This document shows positions 1,191 through 54,100 of a stretch of 64,000 nucleotides of DNA, piece after piece; position 1 is the first letter of the stretch, and each line of letters starts with the position of its first letter. Origin of the DNA: a bacterium (GTDB taxonomy: Bacteria > JAAXHH01); contig CBDETH010000008.1 in the NCBI GenBank assembly GCA_965242885.1, positions 150,286 through 214,285 on the forward strand, read 5' to 3'. The notes under the pieces were generated by a model. The model was not told the origin of the DNA and did not search any database. It saw only the letters and a list, made by a program, of their open reading frames with translations. The position numbers and the translations under genes were made by a program.

Positions 1191-1289
1191 AGGTCCTTTC
1201 CGGATAGCAGTTGACTACGGCAACAGACATCCCATGCCACATCGGCATTAGAACATGTCGTGTCAGGCCATGCAGTTAGCACAATATAT

Positions 1290-1390
1290 GGCCGTATGCC
1301 ACGCGTGTCAATATACGCTATTTGGCCGTATGCCGCACGTGTCAATATACGCTACTTGGCCGTATGCCGCGCGTGTCAATATACGCTACG
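1290..1390. repeat. Three tandem 34-bp direct repeats (GGCCGTATGCCrCrCGTGTCAATATACGCTAytt) 100-200 bp upstream of the topoisomerase gene start
   Basis: Three near-identical units read directly, in the intergenic region between the acyl-CoA dehydrogenase 3' end and the gyrB/parE 5' end; iteron-like. Confidence 0.85.
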
Positions 1391-9513: not shown

Positions 9514-10947
9514 TCAAGACGTCCCGCCATGGTCCGGGCTTCCGCGTCGACCACGCGGGGGAACCGCCGTCTCGTAAGGTACCGCGCCCGCATCGTTCAC
9601 TTCGTAACCGAATCGCTCCAGGTAATGACCGGCGGGAAGCAGCGCGTCGCCCCGCCGGGCCATCTCTTGCTGCAACATGCCGTCCAGGCGCCGCTGCAGG
9701 CCGGCATGTTCTTCCCGGCCGGCCAGGTTGGACAGCTGACAGGGATCCTCCAGGTTGTCGTACAACAGCCAGGGCCCGTCGAGATTGCGTACATAGGTGT
9801 GCCCGGTGGTCCGGATTCCCCGCCAGGGCTGGCCCCGGTATTCCGAAAAAGGCGCGATGCTCATGATGTAAGCGGCCTCGTTGCCCGTAAAGGCCTCGCC
9901 CCGCACCGCCGGGGCGTGGTCCCGCCCCTCGCAGGTATCGGGTACGGGGATGCCCGCCAGACCGAGCAGCGTCGGCATGATGTCCACCACGTTGAAGGGG
10001 GTGCCGATACGAAGCCTCGCGTGCGCCTGGACCGCCTGGACCGCCTGGTCCGCCCGGTCCGCCCGGTCCGCCCGGTCCGCCCGGTCCGCCGGGTCCGGGC
10101 AACACATGACGAATGGAACGCGGATGGACTCGTCCCAGGGATGCTGCTTGCGCTGCCGGCCCTGCGATCCGAGCATGTCGCCATGATCCGAAGTATATAC
10201 GAAAATCGTTTCGTCCATCAGTCCCTGTTCTTCGAGGACGCCGCCCAGCCGCGCCAACTGGTCGTCGAGAGCCGTAATATGCGCATGGTAACCCGCCAGA
10301 TCTGCTCGGGCAGGATCGGGACAGTTGGGACGCACCTCTACTTCCTCCGGCGGATACAGGTCAAGGTAACGGTCGGGCACGGCTTCGTAGGGATTATGGG
10401 GCGGTCCCCACGACAGCACCAGCGCGAAGGGCCGGTCCCGCTTCCGGTCCCGCCCCCGGGCGCGTATGTATTCGATGGCCAGGGAAGTCTGCGCCTCCGC
10501 ATCGTAGCCGTTCCAGTACAGCGGCGCTTCCGAATCCCGGTAGTACAGGGAGTGCATGTAGTCGTGGGTGCAGTTGCCCACGGCCCAGAAATCGAACCCC
10601 TGCCTGCGGGGACCGGGCGGCGTGTATCCGCTCCGGGACGGGCCGTCGAGATGCCATTTCCCGATGTAGGCCGTGTCGTAGCCCTCCGCGCACAGGACCG
10701 TGCCCAGGGTCGGCCGGTCCGTTGGAAGCCGCACATCGTTCATGAACATGCCGGTCGTCAATGGATACTGTCCGGTCAGAAGAGCAGCCCGCCAGGGCGT
10801 GCAGACCGGGATGTTGGAGACTGCCAGGTCGAAGACGACGCCTTCGTCGGCCATGAGGTCCATGTACGGCGTCCGCACCTGGCGGCTGCCTCCGAAGCCG
10901 GTGCTGCACCATCGGTGCTGATCGCTGAACACGAATACGATATTCAT
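9514..10947 (-). CDS. Sulfatase (formylglycine-dependent arylsulfatase family)
   Basis: CTPWRAALLTGQYP (CxPxR FGE motif), GKWHLG, …SDHGDMLG… motifs; contains an in-frame 9-nt tandem repeat insert. Confidence 0.85.
   Translation of the reverse strand: MNIVFVFSDQHRWCSTGFGGSRQVRTPYMDLMADEGVVFDLAVSNIPVCTPWRAALLTGQYPLTTGMFMNDVRLPTDRPTLGTVLCAEGYDTAYIGKWHLDGPSRSGYTPPGPRRQGFDFWAVGNCTHDYMHSLYYRDSEAPLYWNGYDAEAQTSLAIEYIRARGRDRKRDRPFALVLSWGPPHNPYEAVPDRYLDLYPPEEVEVRPNCPDPARADLAGYHAHITALDDQLARLGGVLEEQGLMDETIFVYTSDHGDMLGSQGRQRKQHPWDESIRVPFVMCCPDPADRADRADRADRADQAVQAVQAHARLRIGTPFNVVDIMPTLLGLAGIPVPDTCEGRDHAPAVRGEAFTGNEAAYIMSIAPFSEYRGQPWRGIRTTGHTYVRNLDGPWLLYDNLEDPCQLSNLAGREEHAGLQRRLDGMLQQEMARRGDALLPAGHYLERFGYEVNDAGAVPYETAVPPRGRRGSPDHGGTS
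10021..10092 (-). repeat. In-frame 9-nt tandem repeat (~7-8 units) inside the sulfatase gene, encoding (ADR)n/(AVQ)n
   Basis: gaccgcctg x2 then gcccggtcc x5 read directly; translates to PDPADRADRADRADRADQAVQAVQA. Confidence 0.8.
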
Positions 10948-26387: not shown

Positions 26388-29300
26388 TTAAGCACCAGCC
26401 TCAATTCGAGAATCGGATTCATTACTGGCAATTCCAATGTAACGATCATAAAACACCGTCAACTTGTCCAGAATGCGCTCTTTGGTTTTTGCTCGTTCGC
26501 CACTGGGTGAAAATCGGCCCCCGGGGGGCAGGATAGTGGAAAGGGCTGTACCGGTAGTTGGAACGCCCCCGTCCCGAAACGCATTGCGCATAAATCGAAA
26601 CGTTGCATCCCTATCGACGTTCTCGCTCAATACAATCTGCTCAAGTTCCTCCTTTTTGCGTTCCTCGACGAAATGCTTCCAGTCCCTATCCACGTCGGAA
26701 TGGTCCCCAAGCGAAGCAATAAATACCTGAATAAGGTCTTTCTTGTTCCGCAGTTCAACGCTTGAATCCATGGCCTTTTCTATATCGATTAAAACCTCTT
26801 TGTCCTGTTGATGGCTCTCGTGGAACTTTCTCACGAGTTCCAGAATGTAATCGATATTTATCTCGATCTGCTTGATCAACTCCATCTCGAAGACCAGGTC
26901 ATCGTTGATGTTCGCGCTTTCACCATCCCCGCCCGATCGGAAATCATCGTACAGATCTATATACATGCTGTGGTAGTCCTGTTGATCGCGCGGTGAGAGG
27001 ATTTCATTGCCCTTGAACTCATCAAATGCCGTCAGGATATTTCGGACCCGAAGAATGGTACCGTAAAGCTTGATGAAATTCCGCTGGGACTGCTCGCCAA
27101 TGATATAAGCGCCGACAGGATACTTCTCCAGCAACTCCTCCACCAGGTCGGCGTAACCGCGCACAGGGTGGTCTCCATCCTGATAACCTTCGTAGTAATC
27201 GCGGTAGGACTTCAGCAGCACAAGCCCACCCGCTTCCGGGTTGCCGAAGAGCGCGATGGACTCGTTCGTGGCCTTCTCCAAGTTTCGAAAGCAGACGATA
27301 TTTCCGAATGTCTTTACACTGTTGAGAATGCGGTTGGTGCGCGAAAACGCCTGGAGCAATCCGTGCAGGCGCAGGTTTCTGTCTACCCAAAGCGTATTCA
27401 CCGTCGTTGCGTCGAATCCCGTCAAGAACATGTTGACCACGAGGAGGACGTCGATTTCGCGGTTTTTCACCCTCTCGCTCACGTCCTTGTAGTAATTCTG
27501 AAACTTGTCGGACGACGTATCGTACGATGTTGCGAACAGGGAGTTGTAGTCCTCGATCGCGCCGTCGAGGAAGTGACGTGAACTCGCGTCAAGCCCGCTC
27601 GTATCGTCCGGGTTCTCATCCACCATCCCGTCCGGGTCTTCATCGTTCACACCGAAGCTGTAGATCAGCGCCACCTTCAGTTTTTTGTCACTTGGCGCAT
27701 CAGATAGTTGCCGTTTGAATTCCGCGTAATAGCGTCTGGCCATTTCGATAGAGGCTACGGCGAATATCGAATTGAATCCGGCGAGACGTCGATCCTTCAG
27801 CTTGTAGAAACTATTCCGCTTGGTCTTCCGGTCGAAGTGCTCGCAAATGTAGCGCACGATATTCGCAACCCGTTCCGGAGAGGCCAGCGCCGCCTTGCAA
27901 TCTATATCGGCCACCTGCTCGTCCTCGATATCCTCCGCCTCTTTGATCGTCGAGACATAATCTACCTTAAACGGCAATACGTTCTTGTCCCCGATGGCGT
28001 CCGCGATTGTGTAGGTGTGCGCCTTCTCGCCGAATGCCTGTTCGGTGGTTTTCAGGTCGGGCCGTCCCCCGGAAGCGGCGTTGGCTGCAAAGATCGGCGT
28101 GCCGGTGAATCCAAAAAGATGATACTTCGAGAATGACTTTGTTATCGCGGCGTGCATTTCGCCGAACTGCGAGCGATGGCACTCGTCGAATATGAGGACC
28201 ACATGTCTTTTGAAAACCTCATGTTCGCGGTTCAGCCTTACAAACCGGTCCAGTTTCTGAATCGTCGTGATGATGATACGGGCGTCCGGGTCTTCAAGCT
28301 GCCTTTGCAGGATCGCCGTGCTGGTATTGCTGTTTGCGGCGCCCTTCTCGAATTTGTCGTACTCCTTCATGGTCTGGTAGTCCAGATCCTTCCGATCCAC
28401 TACGAACAGGACCTTGTCGACATGTTCCATCCTGCTTGCCAGCTGCGCCGTCTTGAAACTCGTCAGGGTCTTTCCGGAGCCTGTGGTATGCCAAATGAAT
28501 CCGCCGGCCTCGACCGTGCCCAGTATCCGGTGGTTGGTACTGATGACGATTCGATTCAGTATGCGTTCCGTCGCGACGATCTGGTAAGGTCTCATGACTA
28601 GCAACAACCGGTCGGTGGTGAATACGCAGTACCGGGTCAGGACGTTAAGCAGCGTGTGCTTCGCGAAGAAGGTCCGAGAGAAATTTACCAGGTCCCTGAT
28701 GGGCTTATTGGCCGCATCGGCCCACCAACTAGTGAATTCGAAGCTGTTGCTCGATCGCTTGACGTACTTCGCCGAGCCCTGTTGGGTTTCCTTAACGTGC
28801 TGCATACGGGTCGTATTGCTGTAGTACTTCGTGTTCGTGCCATTCGAAATGACAAAAAGCTGGATGTATTCGAAAAGCCCCGCCTCTGCCCAGAAACTCT
28901 CACGCTGATAGCGATTGATCTGATTGAATGCCTCCCGTATCGGTACGCCGCGGCGCTTGAGTTCGACGTGGACCAGCGGCAGCCCGTTGACCAGCACGGT
29001 AACGTCGTATCGGTTCGCATGCAGCCCGCTGTCGGTTGTGTACTGCCTGATGACCTGCAGTTTGTTGTCGTGGATGTTGTTCTTGCTTAGTAGATAAATG
29101 TTTTTCTTCGATCCGTCGTCGCGGGTTAGTATCTTGACGTAATCTTCCTGAATCGTAGCGGTCTTTTCTTCGATACCGTCGTTCCGGTTGGCCAATTCGC
29201 TGTCGAGAAAAAGGTTCCATTCACTGTCGCTGAAACTGTAGTCATTGAGTTCCTCCAGTTGGCTTCGAAGATTCTCTATCAGGCTGTCTTCGTGCGTAAT

Positions 29301-29465
29301 CTGGATGTACTCGTACGCTTGAGATTTGAGTTGTGCAACAAAGGCACACTCAAGATCTGCCTCGCTCTGGTAACTTTCGGCGCGGTAATTCACCGGCGCG
29401 TATTCCGCCACCACAGTGCTTTGCGCCTGCTCGGCGATGACCTTATAGACAGGGTTTTCGCTCAT
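26388..29465 (-). CDS. hsdR: Type I restriction enzyme R subunit (HsdR)
   Basis: SF2 helicase motifs (…GSGKT…, DECHRS, …) and the HsdR N- and C-terminal regions; start chosen at MSENPVYKV (ATG 29465) rather than the track's upstream ATG. Confidence 0.9.
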   Translation of the reverse strand: MSENPVYKVIAEQAQSTVVAEYAPVNYRAESYQSEADLECAFVAQLKSQAYEYIQITHEDSLIENLRSQLEELNDYSFSDSEWNLFLDSELANRNDGIEEKTATIQEDYVKILTRDDGSKKNIYLLSKNNIHDNKLQVIRQYTTDSGLHANRYDVTVLVNGLPLVHVELKRRGVPIREAFNQINRYQRESFWAEAGLFEYIQLFVISNGTNTKYYSNTTRMQHVKETQQGSAKYVKRSSNSFEFTSWWADAANKPIRDLVNFSRTFFAKHTLLNVLTRYCVFTTDRLLLVMRPYQIVATERILNRIVISTNHRILGTVEAGGFIWHTTGSGKTLTSFKTAQLASRMEHVDKVLFVVDRKDLDYQTMKEYDKFEKGAANSNTSTAILQRQLEDPDARIIITTIQKLDRFVRLNREHEVFKRHVVLIFDECHRSQFGEMHAAITKSFSKYHLFGFTGTPIFAANAASGGRPDLKTTEQAFGEKAHTYTIADAIGDKNVLPFKVDYVSTIKEAEDIEDEQVADIDCKAALASPERVANIVRYICEHFDRKTKRNSFYKLKDRRLAGFNSIFAVASIEMARRYYAEFKRQLSDAPSDKKLKVALIYSFGVNDEDPDGMVDENPDDTSGLDASSRHFLDGAIEDYNSLFATSYDTSSDKFQNYYKDVSERVKNREIDVLLVVNMFLTGFDATTVNTLWVDRNLRLHGLLQAFSRTNRILNSVKTFGNIVCFRNLEKATNESIALFGNPEAGGLVLLKSYRDYYEGYQDGDHPVRGYADLVEELLEKYPVGAYIIGEQSQRNFIKLYGTILRVRNILTAFDEFKGNEILSPRDQQDYHSMYIDLYDDFRSGGDGESANINDDLVFEMELIKQIEINIDYILELVRKFHESHQQDKEVLIDIEKAMDSSVELRNKKDLIQVFIASLGDHSDVDRDWKHFVEERKKEELEQIVLSENVDRDATFRFMRNAFRDGGVPTTGTALSTILPPGGRFSPSGERAKTKERILDKLTVFYDRYIGIASNESDSRIEAGA

Positions 29466-29663
29466 ACTCGACTCCCACATGTACCAAATACGATGGCACC
29501 GTTTTCGTTGGTGGTATGGCACGCAATGAACTGGGGTTCCGCAGGCGCACAAAGTACCTTGCATCTGGATAACTGTCAAGGCGGCATACCGCCCCGCCCA
29601 TTACAGAAACTGGTCCCCAGGGAACGGGCTTGGGTCGACCGATTTGGAGAACCTGTTTTCGCT

Positions 29664-29752: not shown

Positions 29753-31480
29753 TTGTTGACCGAATTAACCGTACGGAATTTCAAGCCTTTTGATGACGTC
29801 CGTATAGAACTCGCCAACCCCGTCGTGTTCATTGGCCCGAACAACTCCGGGAAGACGTCGGCAATGCAAGCACTGGCGTTGTGGAACACCGGCCTGAAGC
29901 GATGGAACGAGCGCCGTTCCGGATCACCCGCGCCTGAGCGCCGACCCGGGGTAACGGTCAACCGCCGTGACCTGATCGCCATGCCAGTTCCTTCAGCCAA
30001 TCTGCTCTGGAGGGCGCTACGTACGCGAAACGTCCGGCAAACAACCGGCGGGCCGAGGACATCCAATATCCGCATCGACGTAATCGTCGTCGGCGTCGGG
30101 AAACAGGGCGAATGGAAGTGTGGACTGGAGTTCGATTATGCCAACGAGGAGTCGATCTACTGCCGACCCTTACGAAACGATGGCGACGCCGACTCCCGCA
30201 TGGCGGTTCCCCCCGAGGCGGGCGCCGTGGAGGTCGCCTTCCTTCCCCCCATGTCAGGGCTTTCAGCCACCGAAACGCGGTTGGATCCAGGCGCGGTCGA
30301 TGTGCGCGTCGGGGAGGGCCGAACCGCGGAGGTACTGCGCAATCTTTGCTTTCAAGTCTCCGAAGGGGATCCCCACCGTTGGGAGGCCATCATATCGCGT
30401 ATAGCACAGTTGTTCGGCGCTGAAATCGATCCTCCGAAATACGTGGTCGAACGGGGAGAGGTCACCATGACCTACCGGGAGGAAGGGGTACAGCTCGACC
30501 TGTCCTCAAGCGGCCGGGGCATGCAGCAGACGCTGCTTCTCCTCGCGTACATGCACGCGAATCCCGGTGCGGTCGTCCTGCTCGACGAGCCCGACGCCCA
30601 TCTCGAAATCCTGCGGCAGCGCCAGATCTACCGAATGATCTCCGAAGAGGCGGAGGGAAATGGTTGTCAGATCATCGCGGCCAGTCATTCCGAGGTCTTG
30701 CTGAACGAAGCGGCGGGCAGGGATACGGTTGTTGCCTTCATCGGGAATCCACACCGGATCGACGACCGAGGCAGCCAGACGTTGAAGGCGCTCCGCGAAA
30801 TCGGCTTTGAGCAGTACACCCAGGCTGGTCAAACCGGCTGGGTGTTGTATCTGGAAGGGTCGACGGACCTCGCGATCCTGCAGGCCTTTGCTAAACGGCT
30901 GAATCATCGTGAAGCGATGCACGCGCTTGAGCGTCCCTTCGTCCACTATATCGGAAACCAATTGGCGAAGGCGGAAAGCAATTTTCACGGACTCAGGGAA
31001 GCGCTGCCCACGCTGCGAGGCATAGCAATCCTGGACGAGATCACGCGGGACCAACCCGCCGACGGGCTGGCGTGCATGGCGTGGGAGCGGCGGGAAATCG
31101 AAAATTACCTCTGCACTCAAGCGACGCTTGAAGCCTACGCCGCTTCAAGCGATAGGGCGGCAGCAGTCGGACCTCTCTTCGAATACGCAGAGGCAAAAAA
31201 ACGACTGGACGCAATGCGGGCCGCCATCCGGGAAGTATCCGCGGCAATGATCACTCTGGGTCGGGGATCTCCCTGGGACGCAGACGCCAAGGTGAGCGAT
31301 GAATTCCTTGCCCCACTCTTCGCCGACTATTTCGAACGGCTGCAACTCCCCAATCTGATGAACAAGAGTAGTTACCACAAGTTGGTGGACTTTGTTCCCG
31401 ATCAGGAGATTGACCCTGGGATCAGACGCGTCCTGGACGCCATCGCGACAACGGATGCGGAATCCAGCGGAAAGGCCTGA
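29753..31480 (+). CDS. ABC-type ATPase (AAA_21/AAA_15-like) with a C-terminal TOPRIM/DUF4435-like domain (OLD-family / PARIS-like / PrrC-like position)
   Basis: Walker A (GPNNSGKTS), Walker B (VVLLDEPDAHLE), H-loop (IIAASHSE); the C-terminal region carries VLYLEGSTDLAIL and ILDEITRD (TOPRIM-like E…DxD); lies between hsdR and hsdS on the opposite strand. Confidence 0.6.
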   Translation: MLTELTVRNFKPFDDVRIELANPVVFIGPNNSGKTSAMQALALWNTGLKRWNERRSGSPAPERRPGVTVNRRDLIAMPVPSANLLWRALRTRNVRQTTGGPRTSNIRIDVIVVGVGKQGEWKCGLEFDYANEESIYCRPLRNDGDADSRMAVPPEAGAVEVAFLPPMSGLSATETRLDPGAVDVRVGEGRTAEVLRNLCFQVSEGDPHRWEAIISRIAQLFGAEIDPPKYVVERGEVTMTYREEGVQLDLSSSGRGMQQTLLLLAYMHANPGAVVLLDEPDAHLEILRQRQIYRMISEEAEGNGCQIIAASHSEVLLNEAAGRDTVVAFIGNPHRIDDRGSQTLKALREIGFEQYTQAGQTGWVLYLEGSTDLAILQAFAKRLNHREAMHALERPFVHYIGNQLAKAESNFHGLREALPTLRGIAILDEITRDQPADGLACMAWERREIENYLCTQATLEAYAASSDRAAAVGPLFEYAEAKKRLDAMRAAIREVSAAMITLGRGSPWDADAKVSDEFLAPLFADYFERLQLPNLMNKSSYHKLVDFVPDQEIDPGIRRVLDAIATTDAESSGKA

Positions 31481-31588: not shown

Positions 31589-32263
31589 TCACGCCGGGTT
31601 AACCGACGGTTCCCCCGATTCCGGCCTGGGTTCGAAAGTTAGCAGCCTGTCCCGGTAATACTCGTATTGTTTCCGACGCGCGGCCAGTTCGGCCGGCAAC
31701 CCGATCGTAATATCGTTCACGAGCATATCGAAACGATCCAGGATCGAGACGATACGCTTCTGTTCGGTTAGGGGCGGGACGGGGATTTTGATCTTTTTAA
31801 TCGCGCGAGGGTGAACCCGATAGACTTTCGTGCCAGTTGCAAATCTCCTGAACTCGCTCAAGTATGAGTTGGACATCAGAATGTAATTGAGAAAACCCGG
31901 CGCTATCAGGTCTTTCCTGATGATTTTCAGTACGGTAGTTTCAGTCCCGGCAAGAAACTTTTGTTGGGTAGTATTCTCGATCAACACGGCCTTTCCGATG
32001 TCGTCCTTCGTTTCCGAAGTCAGATTATAAACGATGTCGCCCGTATCCAGTAGTTGATCGTTTCGAAAACGTTCATTTGCCGAAACTTTAGCTATATGAT
32101 CGAACTCTGAATCGAGATTGACCACCCTGTGATATAGTTTGTAAACATCTCCATAATGAATGTACGGTATTGTATTTATTGCAGAAATCCGGTTGCGTGG
32201 AATACTTGCGCCTTTGCTGAACGTTGCAATATCACCTATCTTCACCCCCCCCCCCCCCCCCAT
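31589..32263 (-). CDS. hsdS: HsdS C-terminal half (TRD2 plus distal conserved region); begins at an ATG fused to the poly-G tract
   Basis: …IPVPPLTEQKRIVSILD…RRKQYEYYRDRLL… is the HsdS conserved region; MGGGGG is encoded by the homopolymer. Confidence 0.75.
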   Translation of the reverse strand: MGGGGGVKIGDIATFSKGASIPRNRISAINTIPYIHYGDVYKLYHRVVNLDSEFDHIAKVSANERFRNDQLLDTGDIVYNLTSETKDDIGKAVLIENTTQQKFLAGTETTVLKIIRKDLIAPGFLNYILMSNSYLSEFRRFATGTKVYRVHPRAIKKIKIPVPPLTEQKRIVSILDRFDMLVNDITIGLPAELAARRKQYEYYRDRLLTFEPRPESGEPSVNPA

Positions 32264-32918
32264 CTAATTCATTGATATTAAACAACTTATCTCTGTAATA
32301 CTCATACTGCTTTTTTCTTGCTTCCAGCTCTGCTTCCAGCTCTGCTTCCAGCTCTTTAAAAGTGTCGAGGGTTTTCACGATCTCTGCTTGGATAGGCAAG
32401 GGGGGAATGGGGATTTCGAGACGTGACCACTTGCTCTTTGTAAGTCCAAATCGCGTAATCCCCGTCGCTGCTTTTTGAATTTGCTTTTGTAGTTCGTCAG
32501 ATTCAAATAAATATGCAATGTAACAAGAAGTAGTATAGTTGGATTTATGGGGTCGAAGCCTCATTACATGATAACTATACACGGCGTTGTGGATGTTTTC
32601 GACAGCGACGGCAGATATGCCTATATCTTCCTTAGTTTCAGAAGTTGGTGTAATAAAAATATCACCTCGTTTAATGTCGCAGCTTTCGAATTGTGCGTCT
32701 GTCGCAGTCACCTTCATTTTCAATATGTCCTTAGAAATGAACTGGTTTCTCACGACATCCATGTAATTTAAAAGTAAAACTTGTTTCTGCCCTTCCTTGG
32801 TCTTTTTATCTGCACCGACCTTTCCGAATCCGCATAATCTGCCCAACGCCCGAAACTCCACCCCATCCGGACACAATTCGGATATCAGTTTCTCGATACG
32901 ACCCACGTGCGTTTTCAT
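32232..32918 (-). CDS. hsdS: HsdS N-terminal half (TRD1 plus central conserved region), truncated by a frameshift at the poly-G tract
   Basis: …LEIPIPPLPIQAEIVKTLD…KKQYEYYRDKLF…; the start ATG overlaps the hsdM stop (ATGA). Confidence 0.8.
   Translation of the reverse strand: MKTHVGRIEKLISELCPDGVEFRALGRLCGFGKVGADKKTKEGQKQVLLLNYMDVVRNQFISKDILKMKVTATDAQFESCDIKRGDIFITPTSETKEDIGISAVAVENIHNAVYSYHVMRLRPHKSNYTTSCYIAYLFESDELQKQIQKAATGITRFGLTKSKWSRLEIPIPPLPIQAEIVKTLDTFKELEAELEAELEARKKQYEYYRDKLFNINELDGGGGGGEDR
32245..32261 (-). repeat. Homopolymeric tract of 17 G (minus strand; 17 C on plus) at the junction of the two hsdS halves: a candidate phase-variation switch
   Basis: Counted directly; a 1-nt contraction to 16 G fuses the halves in frame (…LDGGGGGVKIGD…). 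Confidence 0.85.
32318..32356 (-). repeat. 12-bp x3 tandem repeat encoding (ELEA)3 in the HsdS central conserved region
   Basis: tgcttccagctc x3 read directly; analogous to the TAEL copy-number variation that changes spacer length in EcoR124I/II. Confidence 0.8.
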
Positions 32919-34480
32919 CTCGTTCCTTCTATTTCTAATACGATTTCGTCGATGGCCGTGCGGAGTTCCTGCTGGTGCGCAACGATCCGGTCGATCTCCT
33001 CGTTGAGCGCCTTGATATCGATAGTCTCCCGGGTGTCCTCGGGCTCCACGTAACTCGAAACCGAGATATTGTAGTCGTTCTGAGCGATAGCCTTGTTGTC
33101 GATCAGGGCGGCGAAGTGTTCGATGTCGACGCGATCAGCGTACGCCTTGAGGATCTTCGCGCGGTGCTCATCGGCCAGCTTGTTCTTGTTGCCTGAACGG
33201 ACGAATTCGGAGGATGCCTCGATGAAGAGCGTCTTGTTGTCCGCCTTGCTTTTTTTCAGCACGATGATGCAGGTGGCGATGCTGGTTCCGAAGAAGAGAT
33301 CGGGGGGTAGCTGGATCACTGTGTCGATGTAGTTGTTTTCAATGAGATAGCGACGAATCTTCATTTCGGCTCCGCCGCGATACAGTACTCCTGGAAACTC
33401 GACTATGGCAGCTGTACCGCTGGTTGAAAGCCAGGAAAGCATGTGCATGACGAAAGCGAGATCGGCCTTGCTTTTGGGCGCCAAAACGCCTGCTGGAGAA
33501 AACCGCGGGTCGTTGATGAGGATCGGATTCGCGTCGCCGTCCCATTTGATCGAATAGGGCGGATTGGAGACTATGGCGTCAAACGGTTCATCGTCCCAAT
33601 GCGCCGGGTCGGTGAGTGTGTCTCCGAGGGCGATATCGAACCGCTCGTAATTGATGTCATGCAGGAACATGTTGATGCGGCAGAGGTTAAAGGTCGTGAG
33701 GTTTACCTCCTGCCCGAAGAAACCTTGGCGAACCTTCTCCTTCCCTAGCACCTTGGAGAACTTCAGCAGCAACGAACCCGAACCACAAGCCGGATCGTAT
33801 ACCTTGTTTACATCGTGCCGGCCGACGGTCGTGATTTCTGCGAGCAATTCGCTGACCTCCTGCGGGGTGAAAAATTCGCCGCCGGACTTGCCCGCGTTCG
33901 ATGCATACATCGTCATCAGGTATTCGTAGGCATCTCCGAAAGCGTCTATGGTAGAGTCGGCGTAATCCTGGAAACTCAGTCCGGCAATGGCGTCGAGCAG
34001 TCTAACCAGTTTACGGTTCCGCTGTTCCACCGTGGCGCCGAGTTTGGGCGAGTTTACGTCTAGGTCATCGAAGAGGCCCTTCAGGTCGTCCTCGCTCGCA
34101 GTGCCCTTTGCCGAGTTCTCGATATTTCTAAAGACCCTGGCGAGCGTTTCGTTCAGGTCCTGGTCTTGTCGCGCGGAAGCCGCCACACTGGCAAACAACT
34201 CGGAGGGCAGGATGTAAAATCCTTTCTCCTTTACCGTTTCGTCACGCCCCAACTCCGCATTTTCGTCCGACAGTTCTGCGTAATCGAAATCGGAGATGCC
34301 CCCTCGACGTTCGTCGTCGTTGATATAGGCGGTGAGGTTCTCGCTGATAAATCGGTAGAACAACATCCCCAGCACGTATTGCTTGAAGTCCCAACCGTCC
34401 ACGCTGCCCCGTAGATCATTGGCAATCTGCCAGATCGTGCGGTGCAGTTCTTCCCGATCTTGATGATTAGCGTGTGTCAT
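32915..34480 (-). CDS. hsdM: Type I restriction-modification methyltransferase subunit (HsdM)
   Basis: HsdM N-terminal domain plus N6-adenine MTase motifs (…DPACGSGS…, NPPY). Confidence 0.9.
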   Translation of the reverse strand: MTHANHQDREELHRTIWQIANDLRGSVDGWDFKQYVLGMLFYRFISENLTAYINDDERRGGISDFDYAELSDENAELGRDETVKEKGFYILPSELFASVAASARQDQDLNETLARVFRNIENSAKGTASEDDLKGLFDDLDVNSPKLGATVEQRNRKLVRLLDAIAGLSFQDYADSTIDAFGDAYEYLMTMYASNAGKSGGEFFTPQEVSELLAEITTVGRHDVNKVYDPACGSGSLLLKFSKVLGKEKVRQGFFGQEVNLTTFNLCRINMFLHDINYERFDIALGDTLTDPAHWDDEPFDAIVSNPPYSIKWDGDANPILINDPRFSPAGVLAPKSKADLAFVMHMLSWLSTSGTAAIVEFPGVLYRGGAEMKIRRYLIENNYIDTVIQLPPDLFFGTSIATCIIVLKKSKADNKTLFIEASSEFVRSGNKNKLADEHRAKILKAYADRVDIEHFAALIDNKAIAQNDYNISVSSYVEPEDTRETIDIKALNEEIDRIVAHQQELRTAIDEIVLEIEGTR

Positions 34481-34789: not shown

Positions 34790-36043
34790 TCACCCGCCGA
34801 GCGCCCATCCCGTGGGTATCCCCATCACGCCATCACCCAGGTCTCGGATGTGAGGATCATTGGATAGCACCAGCGCCTGGAGGACGGGTTTGTCCAGGAT
34901 CTCATCCAAACGACGCAAATGGCGCGCATCCCTTTGCGAGACCTTTTCTTTGAATTTGATTTCGATAGGCACATAGCCGCTTTCGGTCTCGATCAGCAGA
35001 TCAACTTTCCGACCGTCGACTGTTCGCAGATGATGAAAATCAACGGGCAACCTCAGATTTCGCGCTTGCTTAAAGATCTCCACGATGATGGCACCTTCGA
35101 ATTCGGTACCCGTTGGCCGGGACCTGCGGTTGAGCAGTGCGCGTTGGACGCCTGGATCGAGGAAGTGTATTTTCGCTGCCTTGGAAAGGCGTTTGTTTCG
35201 GTTTCTGAACCACGGCTGTAACTGGATGATCTGGTAACTGATTTCGAGGTAGGAAACAAAACGAATGATCGTCCTGTGCGTCACGCTGGCGAGACGGGCC
35301 AGTTCGCTGATATTCAGCAAACCGCCAGCCAAACCGCCCAATGCCCGCAACATGCGTACATAGGGCACCAGGTCCCGAAGATTGGCCAGATCTCGAAGGT
35401 CTCTTTGCAGATACGTTCGCAGGTAGTCCTGTAGCCACCCGTACCGGTCCTCCCGGGACAGCGTGATATCGGAAACTACCGGCATGCCCCCGAATTCCAG
35501 GTAGTGATCGAGATGATCAACCGCTCTGGCGTACCTGTCGCATTGCTGGGGTATCCCTGATACGAGGATTTCAAGATCCCCCGATACAAGATACCGGACC
35601 AGGCGGGATTCCACGACCGGATCGTGCCAGGAATCGGTCATCATTTCCGGTATCGTGAGTGGATACAGTTCCATAATCGTGACGCGTCCAGCCAGGCTCT
35701 CCCGTATCTGCTCCATCAACAGGATCTGGCTGGATCCAAGCAGAATGGCACGGGCGTCGGTATACCGGTCGTACACCGCCTTGATGGATTCGACAATCGA
35801 TGGCGCTTTCTGAATTTCGTCCAGGATGACCCTGGGATAACGTTGGTACCACAGTGCCGCTGAAAGCGCAGTATAGTCCGGGCGCACGATCGGGTCTTCG
35901 AGCGAGACGAAACCGTATTCAGGAAACCCGGCCTGTACCAGGGTGGTCTTGCCTGTTTGACGGGCACCTGTCAATGCGATCAGTCGTCCCAGGCGGGTAT
36001 CTGCCTTCTGTTTCATCAAGGACAGCACAGTCCGGTTTTTCAT
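34790..36043 (-). CDS. AAA+ ATPase with a DUF4143 domain
   Basis: Walker A (GARQTGKTT) and the C-terminal DUF4143-like region; a common defence-island passenger. Confidence 0.7.
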   Translation of the reverse strand: MKNRTVLSLMKQKADTRLGRLIALTGARQTGKTTLVQAGFPEYGFVSLEDPIVRPDYTALSAALWYQRYPRVILDEIQKAPSIVESIKAVYDRYTDARAILLGSSQILLMEQIRESLAGRVTIMELYPLTIPEMMTDSWHDPVVESRLVRYLVSGDLEILVSGIPQQCDRYARAVDHLDHYLEFGGMPVVSDITLSREDRYGWLQDYLRTYLQRDLRDLANLRDLVPYVRMLRALGGLAGGLLNISELARLASVTHRTIIRFVSYLEISYQIIQLQPWFRNRNKRLSKAAKIHFLDPGVQRALLNRRSRPTGTEFEGAIIVEIFKQARNLRLPVDFHHLRTVDGRKVDLLIETESGYVPIEIKFKEKVSQRDARHLRRLDEILDKPVLQALVLSNDPHIRDLGDGVMGIPTGWALGG

Positions 36044-36329: not shown

Positions 36330-37919
36330 TTAGTCAGGCTGTCCCGCCGGAACTGGAGTCAGAGGGGGTTCAGTCACGGTCAACATCCCCGTACCCGATA
36401 CTCCGTCCATTGCGGCTTTGATCGTGGCTTCTCCAGCCGAAACACCCATAGCGAGACCAGAGGTGTCAATCGTCGCAACAGATTCATCCGAACTTGTCCA
36501 CGTAAACGCCACATCCGGGACCGACATCCCGTCAGCCGCCTTGGCCACTGCTTCGAGCTGCCGGGCTTGGCCTTCCTCGACTGTCGTCTCCGATGGAGTC
36601 ACTTCGATGATCGCTACCTCCGGCTTGCCGTCCGTCAGTTTCTGGATTGTATTGGGCACACTGTCAACCGAAGTGACCTCATCGATCTGCTTTGTGACAC
36701 GGACGTTTAACTCCGGGAACTTGTTAACCGTCGGCGCGATGCGGGAATCCCACGAGCCGACGCCTTTGTTGTACCGTTCTACCGCCTGCCGAAGCGACTT
36801 GCCCACGTCGATATAGTGCCCGGCAAAAACCGTCAGCCGTTCGTACATCTCCTTGCCCAGGTCGCTGATCTGCCGGGCGGTCTCCGCGACGCGGATCTGC
36901 TGCCAAGACATCTCCACGGCCTTGAGAAGCGCCAGCAGGGCGGGCGGCGTGACGATCACCACGTTCTTCTCGAGGGCCCGGTCCGTTAGCCCGGGTTCCC
37001 GCTCGACGGCGGGGATGAAAGCGAATTCGGGCAAGACCATCACCACCATGTCCGGCGTAGAGGCCAGGACGCTCCAGTACTCTTTCCTGGCCAGGGAGTC
37101 CACGTGACTTTTTACCTGGCTGACATGGCGATCGAACGCGGCGGACCTGGATTCGTCGTCGTCCGTCTCGAAGGCTTCCATAAGCGCCGTCAGTGACACC
37201 TTGGAATCGAGAATGACCGTCCGGTCCTGCGGCAGATGGACGATCACATCGGTTCGGATCCGTTCGCCTTCGCTGTCGAAGCTGTCCTGCACCGTGAAAT
37301 CGATATCCTTACTAAGGCCCGAAAGCTCCAGCACGCGCTCGAGCTGCGTTTCGCCCCAGCGTCCGCGCACGTCGGGCCGCTTGAGCGCGTTGGAAAGCGT
37401 CTGGGCCTCGCTGGCAAGTTCCTTGTTGGTCTGCATGAGGTTCAGCATCTGGGTGCGGAATTCACCGGCGTTTTCCGCCCGCGCCTTGTCCAGCGACACG
37501 ATTTTCTCCGATAGGGGCTTGACCAGTTTCTCGACGGCTTCCTGGCGTGCTTTTAACGATTCCTCGGCGTTTGCCTTGAACGATTCCTGCTGCGACTTCA
37601 GGACTTCCGACGACAGGGCCTTGAAGGTGTCCTTAAACCGCTTCTCGACCTCGTCCCGCTCGCCGAGGCGTTCCTGCGCATTGGTGAGTTTCTGAAGCAG
37701 TTCGGCCCGTTCAACTTCCAGCTTCCGGACTTCCTCCAGTGACTTCCCCGCTTCGGCCAGTTGCTCGCGCACGACGCCCAGTTTGGTCTCCATGGCCGCC
37801 TTCTCGCCGCTGAGCGTATAGATCCGGCTGCTGTTTCTTAAACTCCAGACCAGCACGCCTGCCGCCAGCGCCAGGCATCCCAGGAGCGCGATGAGCAATA
37901 TGATCGTCAGTGTGTCCAT
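36330..37919 (-). CDS. RmuC-family protein (membrane-anchored, coiled-coil, PD-(D/E)xK-like) with a C-terminal Big_2 Ig-like domain
   Basis: N-terminal TM, long coiled coil, RmuC core (…RPDVRGRWGETQLERVLELSG…), then …EVTPSETTVEEGQARQLEAVAKAADG…ATIKA… (Big_2-like). Confidence 0.6.
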   Translation of the reverse strand: MDTLTIILLIALLGCLALAAGVLVWSLRNSSRIYTLSGEKAAMETKLGVVREQLAEAGKSLEEVRKLEVERAELLQKLTNAQERLGERDEVEKRFKDTFKALSSEVLKSQQESFKANAEESLKARQEAVEKLVKPLSEKIVSLDKARAENAGEFRTQMLNLMQTNKELASEAQTLSNALKRPDVRGRWGETQLERVLELSGLSKDIDFTVQDSFDSEGERIRTDVIVHLPQDRTVILDSKVSLTALMEAFETDDDESRSAAFDRHVSQVKSHVDSLARKEYWSVLASTPDMVVMVLPEFAFIPAVEREPGLTDRALEKNVVIVTPPALLALLKAVEMSWQQIRVAETARQISDLGKEMYERLTVFAGHYIDVGKSLRQAVERYNKGVGSWDSRIAPTVNKFPELNVRVTKQIDEVTSVDSVPNTIQKLTDGKPEVAIIEVTPSETTVEEGQARQLEAVAKAADGMSVPDVAFTWTSSDESVATIDTSGLAMGVSAGEATIKAAMDGVSGTGMLTVTEPPLTPVPAGQPD

Positions 37920-37929
37920 GTGAAGATTT

Positions 37930-38544
37930 CTATCCTTTTATCACTTCAAGTAAGATGATTCTTGTTTCCTTGCAGAACTGTTCCAATAGTAGAGGAGAAA
38001 AACGACTCGACAACATCATTTTACCTGGTGTAATCGAATTGACTTTAGCTCCATAATGCCTTCGAACCACCTCATCAAATCTTTTTCGTGTTCTTGCATT
38101 TCCGTGGGCGATGTGATTTCTTACTTTCCTTAAATCGGATATAAAACTCCCATATATAGTTATAGTATTGATAAAGTGTTCATCTGCGGGAAACAGGTTT
38201 TCCAGGTTTTTTTTGATATCCGACGCTCGCCCCCATCTGAGCTGAATTCTGCTGTTGGAACTTCTCTCATATTCCAACATCGCTACACGAGCTCTTTTAA
38301 AGCTTCTTGTAGGACGGTGTCTGAGTAGCTGCGGAGTCGACCCGTCGCAGTAATTTGTACCGCATATCATCCGACAAGCTGAATCCTCAAATATGACCTC
38401 CAAAAGAGAGAATAGACGTACAACTATCATTTCGGCCAAGTAAATACGAGGAAGACTATCTAATGAATTTAAACGGGTTACAAGAGTTAATGCAGTTTCA
38501 GTTGTGTGACGGATTCTGTCAGCCTGTGGATGTAGAGTTGACAT
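37930..38544 (-). CDS. HEPN-like protein (Rx4H motif RNHIAH)
   Basis: 204-aa, all-alpha prediction by eye, with a C-terminal-half KVRNHIAHGN motif matching the HEPN Rx4-6H consensus; 5 nt downstream of the DUF262 gene. Confidence 0.4.
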   Translation of the reverse strand: MSTLHPQADRIRHTTETALTLVTRLNSLDSLPRIYLAEMIVVRLFSLLEVIFEDSACRMICGTNYCDGSTPQLLRHRPTRSFKRARVAMLEYERSSNSRIQLRWGRASDIKKNLENLFPADEHFINTITIYGSFISDLRKVRNHIAHGNARTRKRFDEVVRRHYGAKVNSITPGKMMLSSRFSPLLLEQFCKETRIILLEVIKG

Positions 38545-38549
38545 TGTAA

Positions 38550-39548
38550 CTACAAAAACCTGCTGATATAATTGGAACGAACTTTCCGACTAGCAATCCG
38601 TTGAGTACTAGCCCTACAAGCATCTGCAAAATCAACATCCACTTTAGGGCGATCACTTAGTGGCTTATCTGAGTTAAACCTTTCGTCGATCTCAAATAGA
38701 GCTTCTTCTAGTTTCCTGCCCTTAGCACCCGAGTTCGAGTCCAGCGCAAGTACCAAAGAGAAAAACACAGGTTTTCTTGAGAAAATCGTATCGCGGATTG
38801 ACGAAGGTGATAACGAGACAATCCTATCAAACACCGAGTCCAGCCTCTTTTGGATTTCTGGAGCTTCGGCAAAGGACTCGTCATTGTCGGCATAGAGTTT
38901 CTTTAACCTGGAATTTGAGAAATCTGATAACCCCTCAATCATATTCAGAATGATGTCAGAGATAAACTCAACTTCTTGCATACGTGCGATGTTGTTCGCT
39001 GTGAATACTCTTAAATCTCTCCACAGAGATAACCGAGATGCTGCTTCACGTAAGCAAAACTGTTTAAACTCCCCACTAAAGTCTGCGTTACGCTTTTCTT
39101 GCAGGTTAAGAGTCTTAGCAACAGAATTCAAACGTCCAAAAACCTCAATAACATCTGCATCCGAAGCTCCTAGAAGCCACCCACCAGATAGTTTTGTTTC
39201 ACGAAATACTCTTTTTTGATTTGTTGAGAGCATTTCATAGGTCACCTTGCCTTGATGTACAGGATGATATGCAGCGTACTCACCGCTGATATATTCCAGA
39301 ATTGCTCGGATACGTTGCTGACCATCGACTACTTCTCTAAGGCTCCTATCCTGTTCTAGATCAACAATGTGCCTAAAGTAAAGAGTGGGAACTGGTTTCT
39401 GTTCAAACAGCGTATTAAGAAGGTACGACTTCTGGGGTATCGTCCACACAGAACGCCGTTGGTACCATGGATTTAACTTTAGCTCCTTGTGTTTCTCCCA
39501 GTTAACAAGATCTTGTACAATCAAAGGTTCATAATCTACACGATCCAT
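38550..39548 (-). CDS. DUF262 (ParB/Srx-like, DGQQR motif) protein
   Basis: …REVVDGQQRIRAILEY… is the DUF262/GmrS-like signature. Confidence 0.7.
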   Translation of the reverse strand: MDRVDYEPLIVQDLVNWEKHKELKLNPWYQRRSVWTIPQKSYLLNTLFEQKPVPTLYFRHIVDLEQDRSLREVVDGQQRIRAILEYISGEYAAYHPVHQGKVTYEMLSTNQKRVFRETKLSGGWLLGASDADVIEVFGRLNSVAKTLNLQEKRNADFSGEFKQFCLREAASRLSLWRDLRVFTANNIARMQEVEFISDIILNMIEGLSDFSNSRLKKLYADNDESFAEAPEIQKRLDSVFDRIVSLSPSSIRDTIFSRKPVFFSLVLALDSNSGAKGRKLEEALFEIDERFNSDKPLSDRPKVDVDFADACRASTQRIASRKVRSNYISRFL

Positions 39549-40024
39549 GTTCTTCTCCTCCAGTTTTGTCTTTGATACAGTACTACACGATGTTCACATC
39601 GTACCAAAGGTATTTAGTTGGTTTTAGTAGAGACAATGGAACTCAGATTTGCCCTGTCAATAAACTAATACTCATATAATCTTACACATCAACTTGACAC
39701 GGGTTTCCAAATACTTGTGATTTCACCGTTGTTCGGATTTACGATCGGTATTAAGTCTAAGAATTACCAGGTATCTCATTACGGAACATACTTGAATCAA
39801 TCCTCCTATAATGCCAAACACGAGTTGATAATTCGATCAACTCGCTATTCTCATTTAAAATCTAAAATACATAAATGTCTTATAAGCATGACATCTCAAT
39901 TGAAAGGTATTTGCGTAGTTCCTTTGGGATGATACCCCTGTGTACCCACTACCGACAATCGAAAATGCGGTACAAACTGAGTTTCCTAGCGTTTAAACGA
40001 CAATTGCTAATTTTAACTCTACGA

Positions 40025-40765
40025 CTATCTACTTGAGTGCCATTTATAACAAGATGACTCTTTCATCCATTCCGCAGAGACCCTGGCCAGTTCCTCCATG
40101 ACGGGTTCGTCGGTGTTCCGCCGCTTCAGTACCTTAAATCCATGATCCGCCGTATCCACGACGTGCAGCGTCGCGGTTGGCAGGTCGTCCGCGACCGGCT
40201 GCAGCAGATCCAGGTCCGCCATCGAGTCCCGCTGGCCGGACAGGAACAGCATGGGTACGTCGACCGCCTTCAGATGTTCGGCGCGCTCCGTGTTCTTCTT
40301 GCCCGCATGCAGGGGAAAGGCGAAGAACACGATGCCCCGCAGCCCTTCGATGGGTTCTCGGGCGCAGGCCGTCGAGACCATCCGGCCGCTCATGGAATGC
40401 CCGCCGGCGAACACCGGCAGCCCGTCGGCGCTTTCCTTCGCCGTCTCGATGGCCGCCCGCACCGTGGCCAGGCGCACCTTCTCGCCGTCCATCCCCCCGC
40501 CGCCCTTTTCGGAATAGGGATAGTTGAATCGCAATGTGGCGACTCCCGCATCGTTCAATGCTTCGCTCAGTTCCTCCATGAACCGATGGCGCATGTTCGT
40601 GCCCGATCCGTGTCCCAACACGAGCAGGGCATGTGCGGCGGCCGGACCGCCGGCGCCGCCTGTGCCACCTGCGCCTGATGAGCCGCCCGGCCTCGCCAGA
40701 ATGGCCGATACCTCGCCTTTCTCTTCAGTCGTTATGAACTTCAATTCTCTCGTATCAACGGACAT
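40025..40765 (-). CDS. Alpha/beta hydrolase (dienelactone-hydrolase-like)
   Basis: GHSMSG nucleophile elbow and a C-terminal DHGF His; Gly-rich insert near the N-terminus. Confidence 0.6.
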   Translation of the reverse strand: MSVDTRELKFITTEEKGEVSAILARPGGSSGAGGTGGAGGPAAAHALLVLGHGSGTNMRHRFMEELSEALNDAGVATLRFNYPYSEKGGGGMDGEKVRLATVRAAIETAKESADGLPVFAGGHSMSGRMVSTACAREPIEGLRGIVFFAFPLHAGKKNTERAEHLKAVDVPMLFLSGQRDSMADLDLLQPVADDLPTATLHVVDTADHGFKVLKRRNTDEPVMEELARVSAEWMKESSCYKWHSSR

Positions 40766-49267: not shown

Positions 49268-49339
49268 TGCCTGAATGGCGACCGAGCCCGCGCCTGAATG
49301 GCGACCGAGCCCGCGCCTGAATGGCGACCGAGCCCGAGT
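49268..49339. repeat. Three tandem 24-nt repeats (gcctgaatggcgaccgagcccgc) downstream of the esterase gene
   Basis: Direct reading. Confidence 0.8.
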
Positions 49340-51181: not shown

Positions 51182-54100
51182 ATGCACACCATGAAAGGAA
51201 ATGTCATGTTTCGCGTACTACTGACTCTTCTGCTGCTCGCGACCGGACCGGGACAGGCCGCGCGCGGGGCAGTGCCAGGGTCTCCCTTCGGCCCGGCGCC
51301 TCCGCAGAACCAGGCGCCGCAGACTGTGGACTACATCGACGTCGGGACGCTGTACGTCGGAGGCTCCTCGGCGAAGGTTAACGCTACCTCGTACTTTTCA
51401 GATCCCAACGGCGACACGCTCACCTATTCGGTGAACAACCCGAGTCCGGAGGTCGCCACGGTGAGCATCTCGGGAAGCACGGTCACGATCGCGCCCGTGG
51501 CTATCGGCACGACCGGCAAGATCGTCGTCACGGCCACGGACCCGGGCGGCCTGACTGCCACCCAGGACTTCACCGCCACGGTGGAGAACCCGCCGCCGTC
51601 TCAGCCGAACAGGGCGCCCACGGCCGTGGGGTCCATCTCCAATGTGACCTTGCAGGTCGGCGGTTCCTCGGCCACACGAAGCGTGTCGGGCAAGTTCTCC
51701 GATCCTGACGGCGACACGCTCACCTATTCGGTAAACGACCCGGACACATCCACCGTCACCGTAAGCATATCGGGAAGTACCGTCACGATCGCGCCCGTGG
51801 CCGCCGGCACGACCGGCAAGATCGTCGTCACGGCCACGGACCCGGGCGGCCTCACCGCTACCCAGGACTTTACCGCCACGGTGAGCAATCCGCCACCACC
51901 GCCTCTGACGCCGAACAGGGCGCCCACGGCCGTGGAGTCTATTGGAGATCGGACGCTGACAGTTGGCGGGAATCCTGCTACAGTCAATGTTTCAAGCTAT
52001 TTCTCCGATCCCGACGATGACACCCTCACTTACTCTGTGAATTCACCAACTCCGACCATAGCGACAGTGAGCATATCGGGAAGCACGATGACCATGACCC
52101 CGGTATCTGCCGGAACTACTGCCAGAATCATCGTTACTGCCGAGGATCCCGGTGGGTTGACCGCTACCCACGACTTCAACATCAAGGTCAACGGGCCCCC
52201 TGTAGCCTCAGGATCCATAGCACACCGGACAGTGGACGTGGGCGATAGCGCCTTCACCGTTGACGTTTCCGGCAAGTTCTCCGATCCCAATAGTGACATC
52301 CTCACCTTCTCCGCCTTGTCCTCGAACAAGGCCGCGGCAACGGTCAGCGAGTCGAGCGGGACCCTCACCGTCACACCGAAGACAGGCGGCACGACCACCA
52401 TCACCGTCACTGCGACTGACAGCGGTGGACTCTCGGCATCGTTGTCCTTCACCGTCAAGGTCAACCGAGAGCCCACAACGCGCGGCTCCCTGGCGAACCG
52501 GACGGTGGACGTGGGCGACAGCGCCTTCAGGGTGCCTGTATCCGGCAAGTTCTCCGATCCCGACGGCGACGATCTCGACTTCTCAGCGACGTCCTCCCCC
52601 ATGTCGGTGGCCACGGTCAGTGAGTCGAGCGGGACCGTTACCGTCACGCCGAAAGCCGGGGGCACTACCACCATCACCGTCACCGCGTCGGACGGCAGGC
52701 TTTCCGCGTCACTGACCTTTACCGTCACGGTCAACCGCGGGCCTACCACCACGGGTATACTCACGGATCGGACAGTCGATGTGGGCGACAGCGCCTTCGA
52801 CGTCGCGGTATCGGGCAAGTTCTCCGATCCCGACGGCGACGATCTCGACTTCTCAGCGACGTCCTCCCCCACGTCGGTGGCCACGGTCAGTGAGTCGAGC
52901 GGGACCGTTACCGTCACGCCGAAAGCCGGGGGCACCACCACCATCACCGTCACCGCGTCGGACGGCAGACTTTCCGCGTCGCTGACCTTTACCGTCACGG
53001 TCAACCGCGGGCCGACCACCACGGGTACACTGTCGAATCGGACCGTGAACCTGGGCGACAGCGCCTTCGACGTCGCGGTATCGGGCAAGTTCTCCGATCC
53101 CGACGGCGACGATCTCACCTATTCCGCCACGTCCTCCGCCACGACGGTGGCCACGGTCAGCGAGTCGAGCGGGACCGTTACCGTCATGCCGAAAGCCGGG
53201 GGCACCACCACCATCACCGTCACCGCGTCGGACGGCAGACTTTCCGCGTCACTGACTTTCACCGTTACCGTCAGCGTCTCCGGCATCGAAAATCAATCGC
53301 CGACAGTCTCATGGACTATTCCGGATCAACCTCTGGAGCGGAATGGTTCGGCCGGATCGGTAATCCTCTCGAGCAAGTTCTCGGATCCCGATAACGATGC
53401 CTTGACTTATTCGGCCACATCGTCGGACACATCGGTAGCAATGGTGAGCGTATCGGGCAGCGTATTGACGACCACCCCGGGCGTTAAAGGCTCTTCGACA
53501 ATCACGGTCATAGCGACGGACCCTGGAGGCTTGACCGCCTCGCAGACCTTCACGGCAACGGTGAGCCGCAAGCCAGTAACGAGCGGAACCATACCAAAGA
53601 TTATACTGGAGGAGACTGATCAGTCCCGTTCGATCGCCGTGGCAGTCTATTTTTCGGAACCCGACGGCGAAGCGCTCACCTATTCGGCGGTCTCGTCGAA
53701 TTCCGATATCGCGAGAACGAGTGTTACTGGTAACACGGTAACGGTCTCCAGGGTTTCTCCAGGAACCGGTGTGGTATGGGTTACAGCCACAGACCCCGGT
53801 GGCCTGACCGTTGTGCAGTCCATGACTATACTGGTAACGAACAGGGCTCCGGTGACGAAGACCAGTATCACGAACCAGACGCTCTACCTGAGCGATGACT
53901 TTAGAAGAGTCGATTTGTCCGGTATTTTCTCGGATCCGGACGGTCAGACGCTCGCCTTTACGGCTACCTCATCGGATACAGGTAAAGTGACGGTTTCAGC
54001 CGGAGGTTCCACCCTGCTGATCCGGCCCGTGACTCGCGGATCGACGACGGTTACCGTGCGGGCGACCGACCCGGGGAATCAATACGTCGAACAAACCTTC

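Follow-up and report, generated by a model that had tools for sequence, protein, structure and literature searches.

The window, the whole 64-kb stretch of DNA that was analysed, comes from a 3.84-Mb NCBI contig of an uncultured Gemmatimonadota bacterium, environmental or symbiont-associated, whose relatives are metagenome-assembled genomes (MAGs). It carries a type I restriction-modification (R-M) locus on the minus strand. hsdM (32915..34480) encodes a type IC methyltransferase subunit of 521 aa with Pfam N6_Mtase (1.4e-112) and HsdM_N domains, and its stop codon is overlapped by 4 nt by the start of hsdS1 (32232..32918), a 228-aa ORF (Pfam Methylase_S, 3.8e-13) that contains the first target-recognition domain (TRD1) and the complete D1 helix and ends seven codons past a poly-G tract. 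The ATG of hsdS2 (31589..32263) abuts the same tract, and its 224-aa product (Pfam Methylase_S, 7.8e-18), consisting of TRD2 and the C-terminal helix D2, aligns to TRD2 and D2 of EcoR124 HsdS. The restriction and translocase subunit, also on the minus strand, is encoded by hsdR (26388..29579; Pfam EcoR124_C, 9.4e-64, T1R_D3-like, SWI2_SNF2 and HSDR_N), the true start of which is probably downstream of the listed TTG. Between hsdS2 and hsdR, on the opposite strand, lies a gene for a 575-aa ABC/OLD-type ATPase (29753..31480, plus strand; Pfam AAA_21 and AAA_15), with AriA (3.1e-22) and AriAB (2.6e-16) of the PARIS system, together with NsnB, as its best PADLOC matches. It is kept at the same place in two of the relatives described below (L168 and L169) and looks like a defence gene of the anti-anti-restriction type embedded in a type I operon.

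The family to which these subunits belong was investigated by comparison with solved structures. HsdM matched the EcoR124 M protein over its full length (E = 2e-185, 621 bits) and the EcoKI M protein at 3e-15, and is nearer to HsdM of the IC family than to those of IA or IB. HsdR matched the EcoR124I HsdR chains (E = 3.4e-252), with none of the other solved type I HsdR chains of full length reaching E <= 1e-5, and the best solved relative of the reconstructed (fused) HsdS was the EcoR124 HsdS chain 7bst_A (7.7e-32). The type IC family was originally defined by genetic complementation and subunit exchange with IC enzymes; judged by the sequences of all three subunits, the R-M system of the window is type IC (EcoR124I family).

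Within hsdS1 the coding (minus) strand carries a 12-bp tandem repeat at 32319..32354. Its three perfect GAGCTGGAAGCA units are in frame within the ORF 32232..32918 and encode ELEAELEAELEA, that is ELEA x3, at HsdS residues 189-200, with RKKQYEYYRDKL directly after. Perfect 12-bp periodicity reaches 32355, beyond the third unit, and Tandem Repeats Finder placed the tract at 32319..32355 of the plus strand, with a period of 12, 3.1 copies, 100% matches and the unit TGCTTCCAGCTC. A preliminary description of this DNA had reported an (ELEA)3 repeat in hsdS at 32318..32356; the repeat is real, and each of those limits was misplaced by a single base, which is immaterial. A chance origin was ruled out by the expectation for a perfect period-12 run of this length, about 2e-10 per window, and by shuffling, since 25 consecutive period-12 matches were observed against a maximum of 11 in 30 shuffles of the window. 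Only two perfect repeats with at least three copies of a 6-30 bp unit occur in the 64 kb, the ELEA repeat being one. Given the codon usage of the R-M operon, the use of identical codons across all three ELEA units has a probability of about 4e-4, indicating that the identity of the units at the DNA level is not a mere by-product of protein conservation.

In the HMMER alignment with 7bst_A (E = 7.7e-32), FKELEAELEAELEARKKQYEYYRD pairs without gaps with the TAEL-repeat segment of EcoR124 HsdS, and the ELEA units therefore occupy exactly the site of the TAEL repeat. The coding region of the D1 helix, the central conserved region, spans 32283..32399 on the minus strand (residues 174-212) and holds both the repeat and the RKKQYEYYRDKL motif. 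In an AlphaFold model (51 sequences, mean pLDDT 88.7) one predicted helix runs from residue 174 to 212 with residues 189-200 at its middle, predicted partner helices lie at 383-401 and 407-425 (D2), and the poly-Gly segment at 219-223 falls in a low-confidence linker. The top structural matches of the model in Foldseek were all HsdS subunits. The D1 partner, D2 (LDRF-DMLVNDITIGLPAELAA-RRKQYEYYRDRLL; coding region 31640..31768, minus strand), has 17 residues between its anchors and is encoded by non-repetitive DNA. D1 ends in ...ELEARKKQYEYYRDKL and D2 in ...ELAARRKQYEYYRDRL, in a TRD1-D1-TRD2-D2 order with RKKQYxYYR-type ends, and R201, Q204, Y205, Q417 and Y421 are invariant in the family alignment. 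Both the gap-free match to the EcoR124 TAEL site and the predicted helix 174-212 thus bear out the earlier proposal that the repeat lies in the coiled coil between the two TRDs.

The TAEL repeat is known to alter recognition: two units in EcoR124I specify GAAN6RTCG and three in EcoR124II specify GAAN7RTCG (PMC3874165). The window resembles this pair in carrying a 12-bp, four-residue repeat at the same site, immediately upstream of RKKQYxYYR in D1, in having HsdM and HsdR of the same family, and in that near-identical alleles differ in copy number (PMC3874165). It differs in its unit, ELEA (GAGCTGGAAGCA) rather than TAEL, in residing on a Gemmatimonadota chromosome rather than an enterobacterial plasmid (R124), and in having a poly-G tract after the repeat and an ATPase gene between hsdS and hsdR. 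From the LDxF anchor to RKKQY, D1 is 13 residues long in both the window and EcoR124I, which is the two-TAEL length; in the window these residues are made up of three perfect units, whereas in EcoR124I they consist of two perfect units with degenerate flanks. D2 is 17 residues long in both the window HsdS and EcoR124 HsdS, and the three-TAEL length of D1 has been called the apparent optimum (PMC3874165). The suggestion that the repeat is an EcoR124I/II-style substrate for specificity switching therefore stands as regards its site, but three ELEA units correspond to the 13-residue D1 of the two-TAEL EcoR124I and not to that of EcoR124II.

The poly-G tract, G17 on the coding (minus) strand and C17 on the plus strand (32245..32261), occupies the stretch that separates D1 from TRD2, at 57 nt downstream of the codons for RKKQY, and is the only homopolymer of at least 9 nt in the window. 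The consequences of its length were examined in silico. With G17, hsdS is split into ORFs of 228 and 224 aa; with G13, G16 or G19 it forms a single frame of 441-443 aa, and a change of one G is enough to restore a 442-aa hsdS frame. With 15, 17 or 18 G the first subunit (S1) ends at 224-228 aa, and D1 is complete at every out-of-frame length tested. In a REBASE survey of SSRs in hsdS (Atack et al.), these always occupied the inter-TRD segment that directly follows the TAEL coiled coil (PMC7383803). G17 is likewise a frameshifting SSR between the TRDs, right after a TAEL-type coiled coil; units divisible by three were deliberately excluded from that survey, so that the 12-bp repeat falls outside its catalogue (PMC7383803).

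Both tracts have a counterpart in NgoAV, a type IC system of Neisseria gonorrhoeae. There, the poly-G tract closing hsdS1 at its 3′ end determines whether the subunit is truncated, recognising GCAN8TGC, or fused (PMC9577141), and across 25 gonococcal strains the number of LEAT units (0-3) together with the poly-G frame set the recognition sequence to GACN6TGC, GACN7TGC or GCAN8TGC (PMC6789123). The window shares with NgoAV a tetrapeptide repeat in D1 followed by poly-G before TRD2, the division of hsdS into a TRD1-D1 half (~208-228 aa) and a second ORF, which the loss of one G fuses, and a repeat number that differs among strains (PMC9577141, PMC6789123); tract length, which varies in NgoAV, may do so in the window lineage as well, where the G counts come in part from low-coverage contigs. 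Unlike NgoAV, the window has a tract of 17 G (7-11 in other family members) and an hsdS2 that is an intact TRD2-D2 ORF, the hsdS2 of strain FA1090 having been reported inactive; and whereas NgoAV belongs to a human pathogen, the host of the window is environmental or symbiont-associated. For EcoR124I and EcoDXXI, subunits truncated to TRD1-D1 are reported to work as homodimers whose sites are palindromic (PMC3874165). The S1 of the window keeps all of D1, as do the active homodimeric mutants EcoR124I(delta50) and EcoDXXI(deltaC), although its truncation is natural and arises by homopolymer frameshift rather than by deletion or Tn5 insertion. By analogy, the truncated S1 would be expected to homodimerise via D1 and to recognise a palindromic site, and on the same precedents this form would be active; a complete D1 is required for this, though it does not suffice.

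Variation of the repeat was next sought in relatives of the window. These were reached via the members of the 90% HsdM cluster and their neighbouring DNA, HsdM being the sole query that led to relatives. Exact-sequence look-ups of HsdS1, HsdS2 and the ATPase returned no contigs, and hsdS-hsdM had no match in the plasmid collection by Megablast. A database of 5.8 billion proteins held nothing closer than 62% identity for the fused HsdS and 74% for HsdS1, and matches of HsdS1 among metagenome and genome contigs were at most 58% identical; these loci suited a survey of the family but not the study of strain-level variation. Over 12,752 bp shared with the window, the nearest relative, a 14.4-kb contig (ENA ERZ25069412; L168), shows 99.69% identity and 25 mismatches, and hsdS differs by five substitutions in 1.4 kb. 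Only two indels separate the two sequences: L168 carries an additional GAGCTGGAAGCA unit, four against three in the window, and its poly-G tract is shorter by three G (14 vs 17). At ~92.5% identity, a sister lineage includes L162 (GCA_009842775.1), L163, L164 (GCA_009838645.1) and L169, each with four units, and L165, which ends inside the repeat. All of the sister-lineage units are GAACTGGAAGCA or GAATTGGAAGCA, both synonymous variants, compared with GAGCTGGAAGCA in the window and L168, and the presence of synonymous variants throughout these units represents homogenisation within a single gene lineage. Since the nearest relative and the outgroup both have four units, the three units of the window are most simply explained by a recent loss, and the window most likely represents a one-unit contraction. 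The three-unit state was seen only in the window's own assembly, an identical independent contig (L161) stopping 38 nt into hsdS1.

These comparisons bear on two further points of the preliminary description. It had anticipated that variants with two or four copies might occur in related genomes, and four copies were indeed present in L168 and in the four sister-lineage sequences that span the repeat. It had also regarded the repeat and the poly-G tract as two independent hypermutable elements, which agrees with a 12-bp unit and three G being the sole indels of L168, provided that "hypermutable" is taken relative to point substitution between strains. In the four-unit sequences L168, L169 and L162-L164, D1 has 17 residues, equal to D2, and thus the three-TAEL length, a point of resemblance to EcoDXXI and EcoPrrI. 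The poly-G tract measured 17 nt in the window, 14 in L168 and 10 in L169 (fused, 444 aa), but L168 (6x coverage) and L169 (2x, with several broken neighbouring genes) both appear to be low-coverage long-read contigs with unreliable homopolymer counts, and homopolymer errors may be present in them and possibly in the window, so that the split or fused state is uncertain. Independently made short-read assemblies of Gemmatimonadota MAGs (L162-L167 and the hsdS2 cluster) all break inside hsdS, a systematic assembly breakpoint. The poly-G tract is where contigs of ~92.9 kb stop, hsdS2 is where those of ~84 kb begin, and one Logan contig is cut off within the 48-bp repeat. In L162 (7563-8189), D1 reads RKKQ*EYY, with TAG for TAT; the ENA scaffold L163, of the same length, has TAT. 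Either the nonsense allele is genuine, or one contig was processed differently for its two deposits.

The wider family was surveyed using 160 distant homologous loci with 30-58% identity in TRD1, and D1 and D2 lengths were obtained from 150 of these. D1 was 5, 9, 13, 17, 21, 25 or 33 residues long, in steps of four save for two loci of 14, the commonest lengths being 13 (71 loci) and 17 (65 loci), and D2 was 17 residues long in 147 of the 150. A perfect period-12 tract was present in D1 over at least 24 nt in 115/150 loci and over at least 36 nt in 83/150. Units differed by a mean of 0.27 nt within a locus, as against 1.7-1.8 nt between loci encoding the same tetrapeptide; conservation at the amino-acid level only was ruled out as the source of the repeat, its codons being identical within loci and different between them. 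Copy number also varied between near-identical alleles unrelated to the window: L038 and L064 differ by one unit and L034 and L047 by two, with flanks 99-100% identical, and the latter pair differs in poly-G as well (G8 vs G10). A slippery tract 45-69 nt (about 55) downstream of RKKQY was common across the homologous loci: about 30 of them had poly-G of 7-11 nt, and others had GACA(n), GA(n) or GGTC(n). The longest poly-G was the G17 of the window. At the protein level, LEAELEAELEA-RKKQY was the amino-acid consensus in dozens of homologues with 39-62% identity.

Several members of the family showed more extreme arrangements. At L079 (~3500..3700) at least eight ELTA units form a 98-nt perfect tract, giving a D1 of 33 residues that is followed by GACA(n), and GACA tracts of 14-18 units follow D1 at L095, L119 and L156. 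L029, L032, L061 and L074 have two D1-type repeat regions ~540-620 nt apart, with an ELEA/ELTA-type repeat after each of two successive TRDs and no EcoR124-like D2. Homologues of 600-640 aa (P0002-P0005, P0012, P0027, P0067 and others) contain three conserved RKKQY regions and correspond to the three-TRD "extended" HsdS of the kind described in PMC7383803.

Taken together, these data make it probable that the repeat is a length-setting module of D1 in a type IC HsdS, and a specificity-changing repeat of the EcoR124I/NgoAV kind. D1 and D2 would form an antiparallel coiled coil that holds the two TRDs apart. Identical DNA units would allow replication slippage or unequal crossing-over to add or remove whole ELEA units with the frame kept, and each unit, corresponding to about one helical turn, would shift the half-sites 1 bp apart or together, so that a different set of sites would be protected and attacked. 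The change of 1 bp in the spacer per unit is expected by analogy with EcoR124I/II and NgoAV. Under such a mechanism the three units of the window would pair a 13-residue D1, the EcoR124I length, with a 17-residue D2, and the four units of its closest relatives would pair 17 residues with 17. The poly-G tract may provide a second axis, its present frame splitting hsdS into TRD1-D1 and TRD2-D2 halves and the loss of one G being predicted to restore a two-TRD subunit. Both the mechanism (EcoR124I/II) and the pairing of poly-G with a tetrapeptide repeat (NgoAV, PMC6789123) have already been published; no new mechanism is involved, and the window represents the NgoAV architecture in a new host.

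The two tracts are unlikely to change at similar rates. Published figures put G9 at ~1e-3 to 1e-2 and a tetranucleotide of three units at ~1e-6 (PMC7383803). We infer from them that the G tract would change much more frequently than the 12-mer, a three-unit 12-mer being expected to be slower than G17 by orders of magnitude. With three units only, and given the cited rate of ~1e-6, the repeat may produce a strain-level polymorphism rather than a fast switch. It could even be that the repeat is a conserved structural motif of the coiled coil whose copy number drifts slowly, as a strain polymorphism rarely and perhaps neutrally fixed, with no role in switching. This would fit the conservation of the LEAELEAELEA-RKKQY consensus, the small number of units for slippage at the rates quoted in PMC7383803, the presence of four units in all five lineage relatives that span the whole repeat and the dominance of the two length classes of 13 and 17 residues, as if only those were well tolerated. 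We nevertheless consider slow drift unlikely. Units that are identical within loci and different between them require ongoing turnover, and alleles with zero or very few flank substitutions differ in units, indicating that copy number changes much faster than point substitutions accumulate. Moreover, each unit alters specificity in the experimental systems (PMC3874165, PMC6789123), and a change in copy number would not be neutral if the R-M system is active.

Alternatively, hsdS might be a decaying pseudogene, frameshifted at the poly-G tract, in which both length differences are the noise of relaxed selection. The split hsdS of the window and L168, the TAG stop in L162 and the broken neighbouring genes of the low-coverage L169 could be read in this way. 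However, each half of hsdS is an intact ORF without further stops, a single G separates them from the 442-aa frame, and just five substitutions distinguish hsdS from that of L168. Both hsdM and hsdR are present at full length and closely resemble their EcoR124 counterparts, S1 retains D1 at every out-of-frame length tested, like the functional truncated forms of NgoAV, EcoR124I(delta50) and EcoDXXI(deltaC) (PMC3874165, PMC9577141), and dozens of unrelated loci share the arrangement in which D1 is followed by an SSR; decay of the gene is accordingly improbable. That the difference between three and four units is an artefact of assembly or sequencing, in the window or in its relatives, is highly improbable, for although the L165 Logan contig ends inside the repeat, MAG contigs end in poly-G and L168 and L169 are of low coverage, a tract of 36-48 bp is shorter than a sequencing read, two Illumina MAGs, two ENA scaffolds and a further two contigs show four units independently of one another, a clean in-register 12-bp indel is atypical of sequencing error, and unrelated allele pairs in other samples differ in the same manner.

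If the repeat does set the length of D1, as we favour, the locus could in principle be a two-axis generator of specificities, combining the ELEA count (3 or 4 seen) with the poly-G frame. The split state could then yield methyltransferases of three kinds at once, with homodimers of S1 and of S2 alongside the S1-S2 heterodimer, three species being conceivable because hsdS2 is an intact ORF with its ATG abutting the tract, and in-frame changes of the unusually long G tract could also tune the linker. This extended scheme is rather doubtful; if true, it would provide a richer repertoire than has been shown for NgoAV. The locus offers a clean natural example of the diversification of a type IC specificity subunit outside enterobacterial plasmids and Neisseria, and the family survey points to a general design, with a D1 that varies in four-residue steps beside a fixed D2, homogenised units and, ~55 nt downstream, a tract prone to frameshifting. 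Such a design should be useful for predicting recognition-site spacers from sequence and for interpreting fragmented hsdS annotations and contig breaks in MAGs.

The surroundings of the R-M locus also contain candidate defence genes. The region of ~26.0-40.0 kb has a GC content of 37-61%, compared with ~66% in its flanks, as expected for a defence island. A DUF4143/AAA_14 ATPase gene beside hsdM (34790..36043, minus strand) matches the PADLOC candidate PDC-S01 (1.5e-75), and alongside it lies a gene for a 529-aa RmuC-family protein with a C-terminal Big_2 domain (36330..37919, minus strand), the RmuC of L162 being 475 aa. The window and L168 share a GmrSD_N (38550..39548) and HEPN_RiboL-PSP (37930..38544) gene pair, within ~37923..40063 at 37-43% GC, in place of which the sister-lineage MAGs L162 and L164 (~92.5% identity) have ~76 bp; a defence module was thus inserted or deleted recently. 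Other tandem repeats in the window are unrelated to the R-M locus: a 270-bp unit repeated 3.9 times at 52226..53273 (86% matches), a perfect 23-bp unit x3.0 at 49269..49336, a 34-bp unit x3.0 at 1289..1389 (94%) and a 9-bp unit x8.2 at 10024..10097 (95%).
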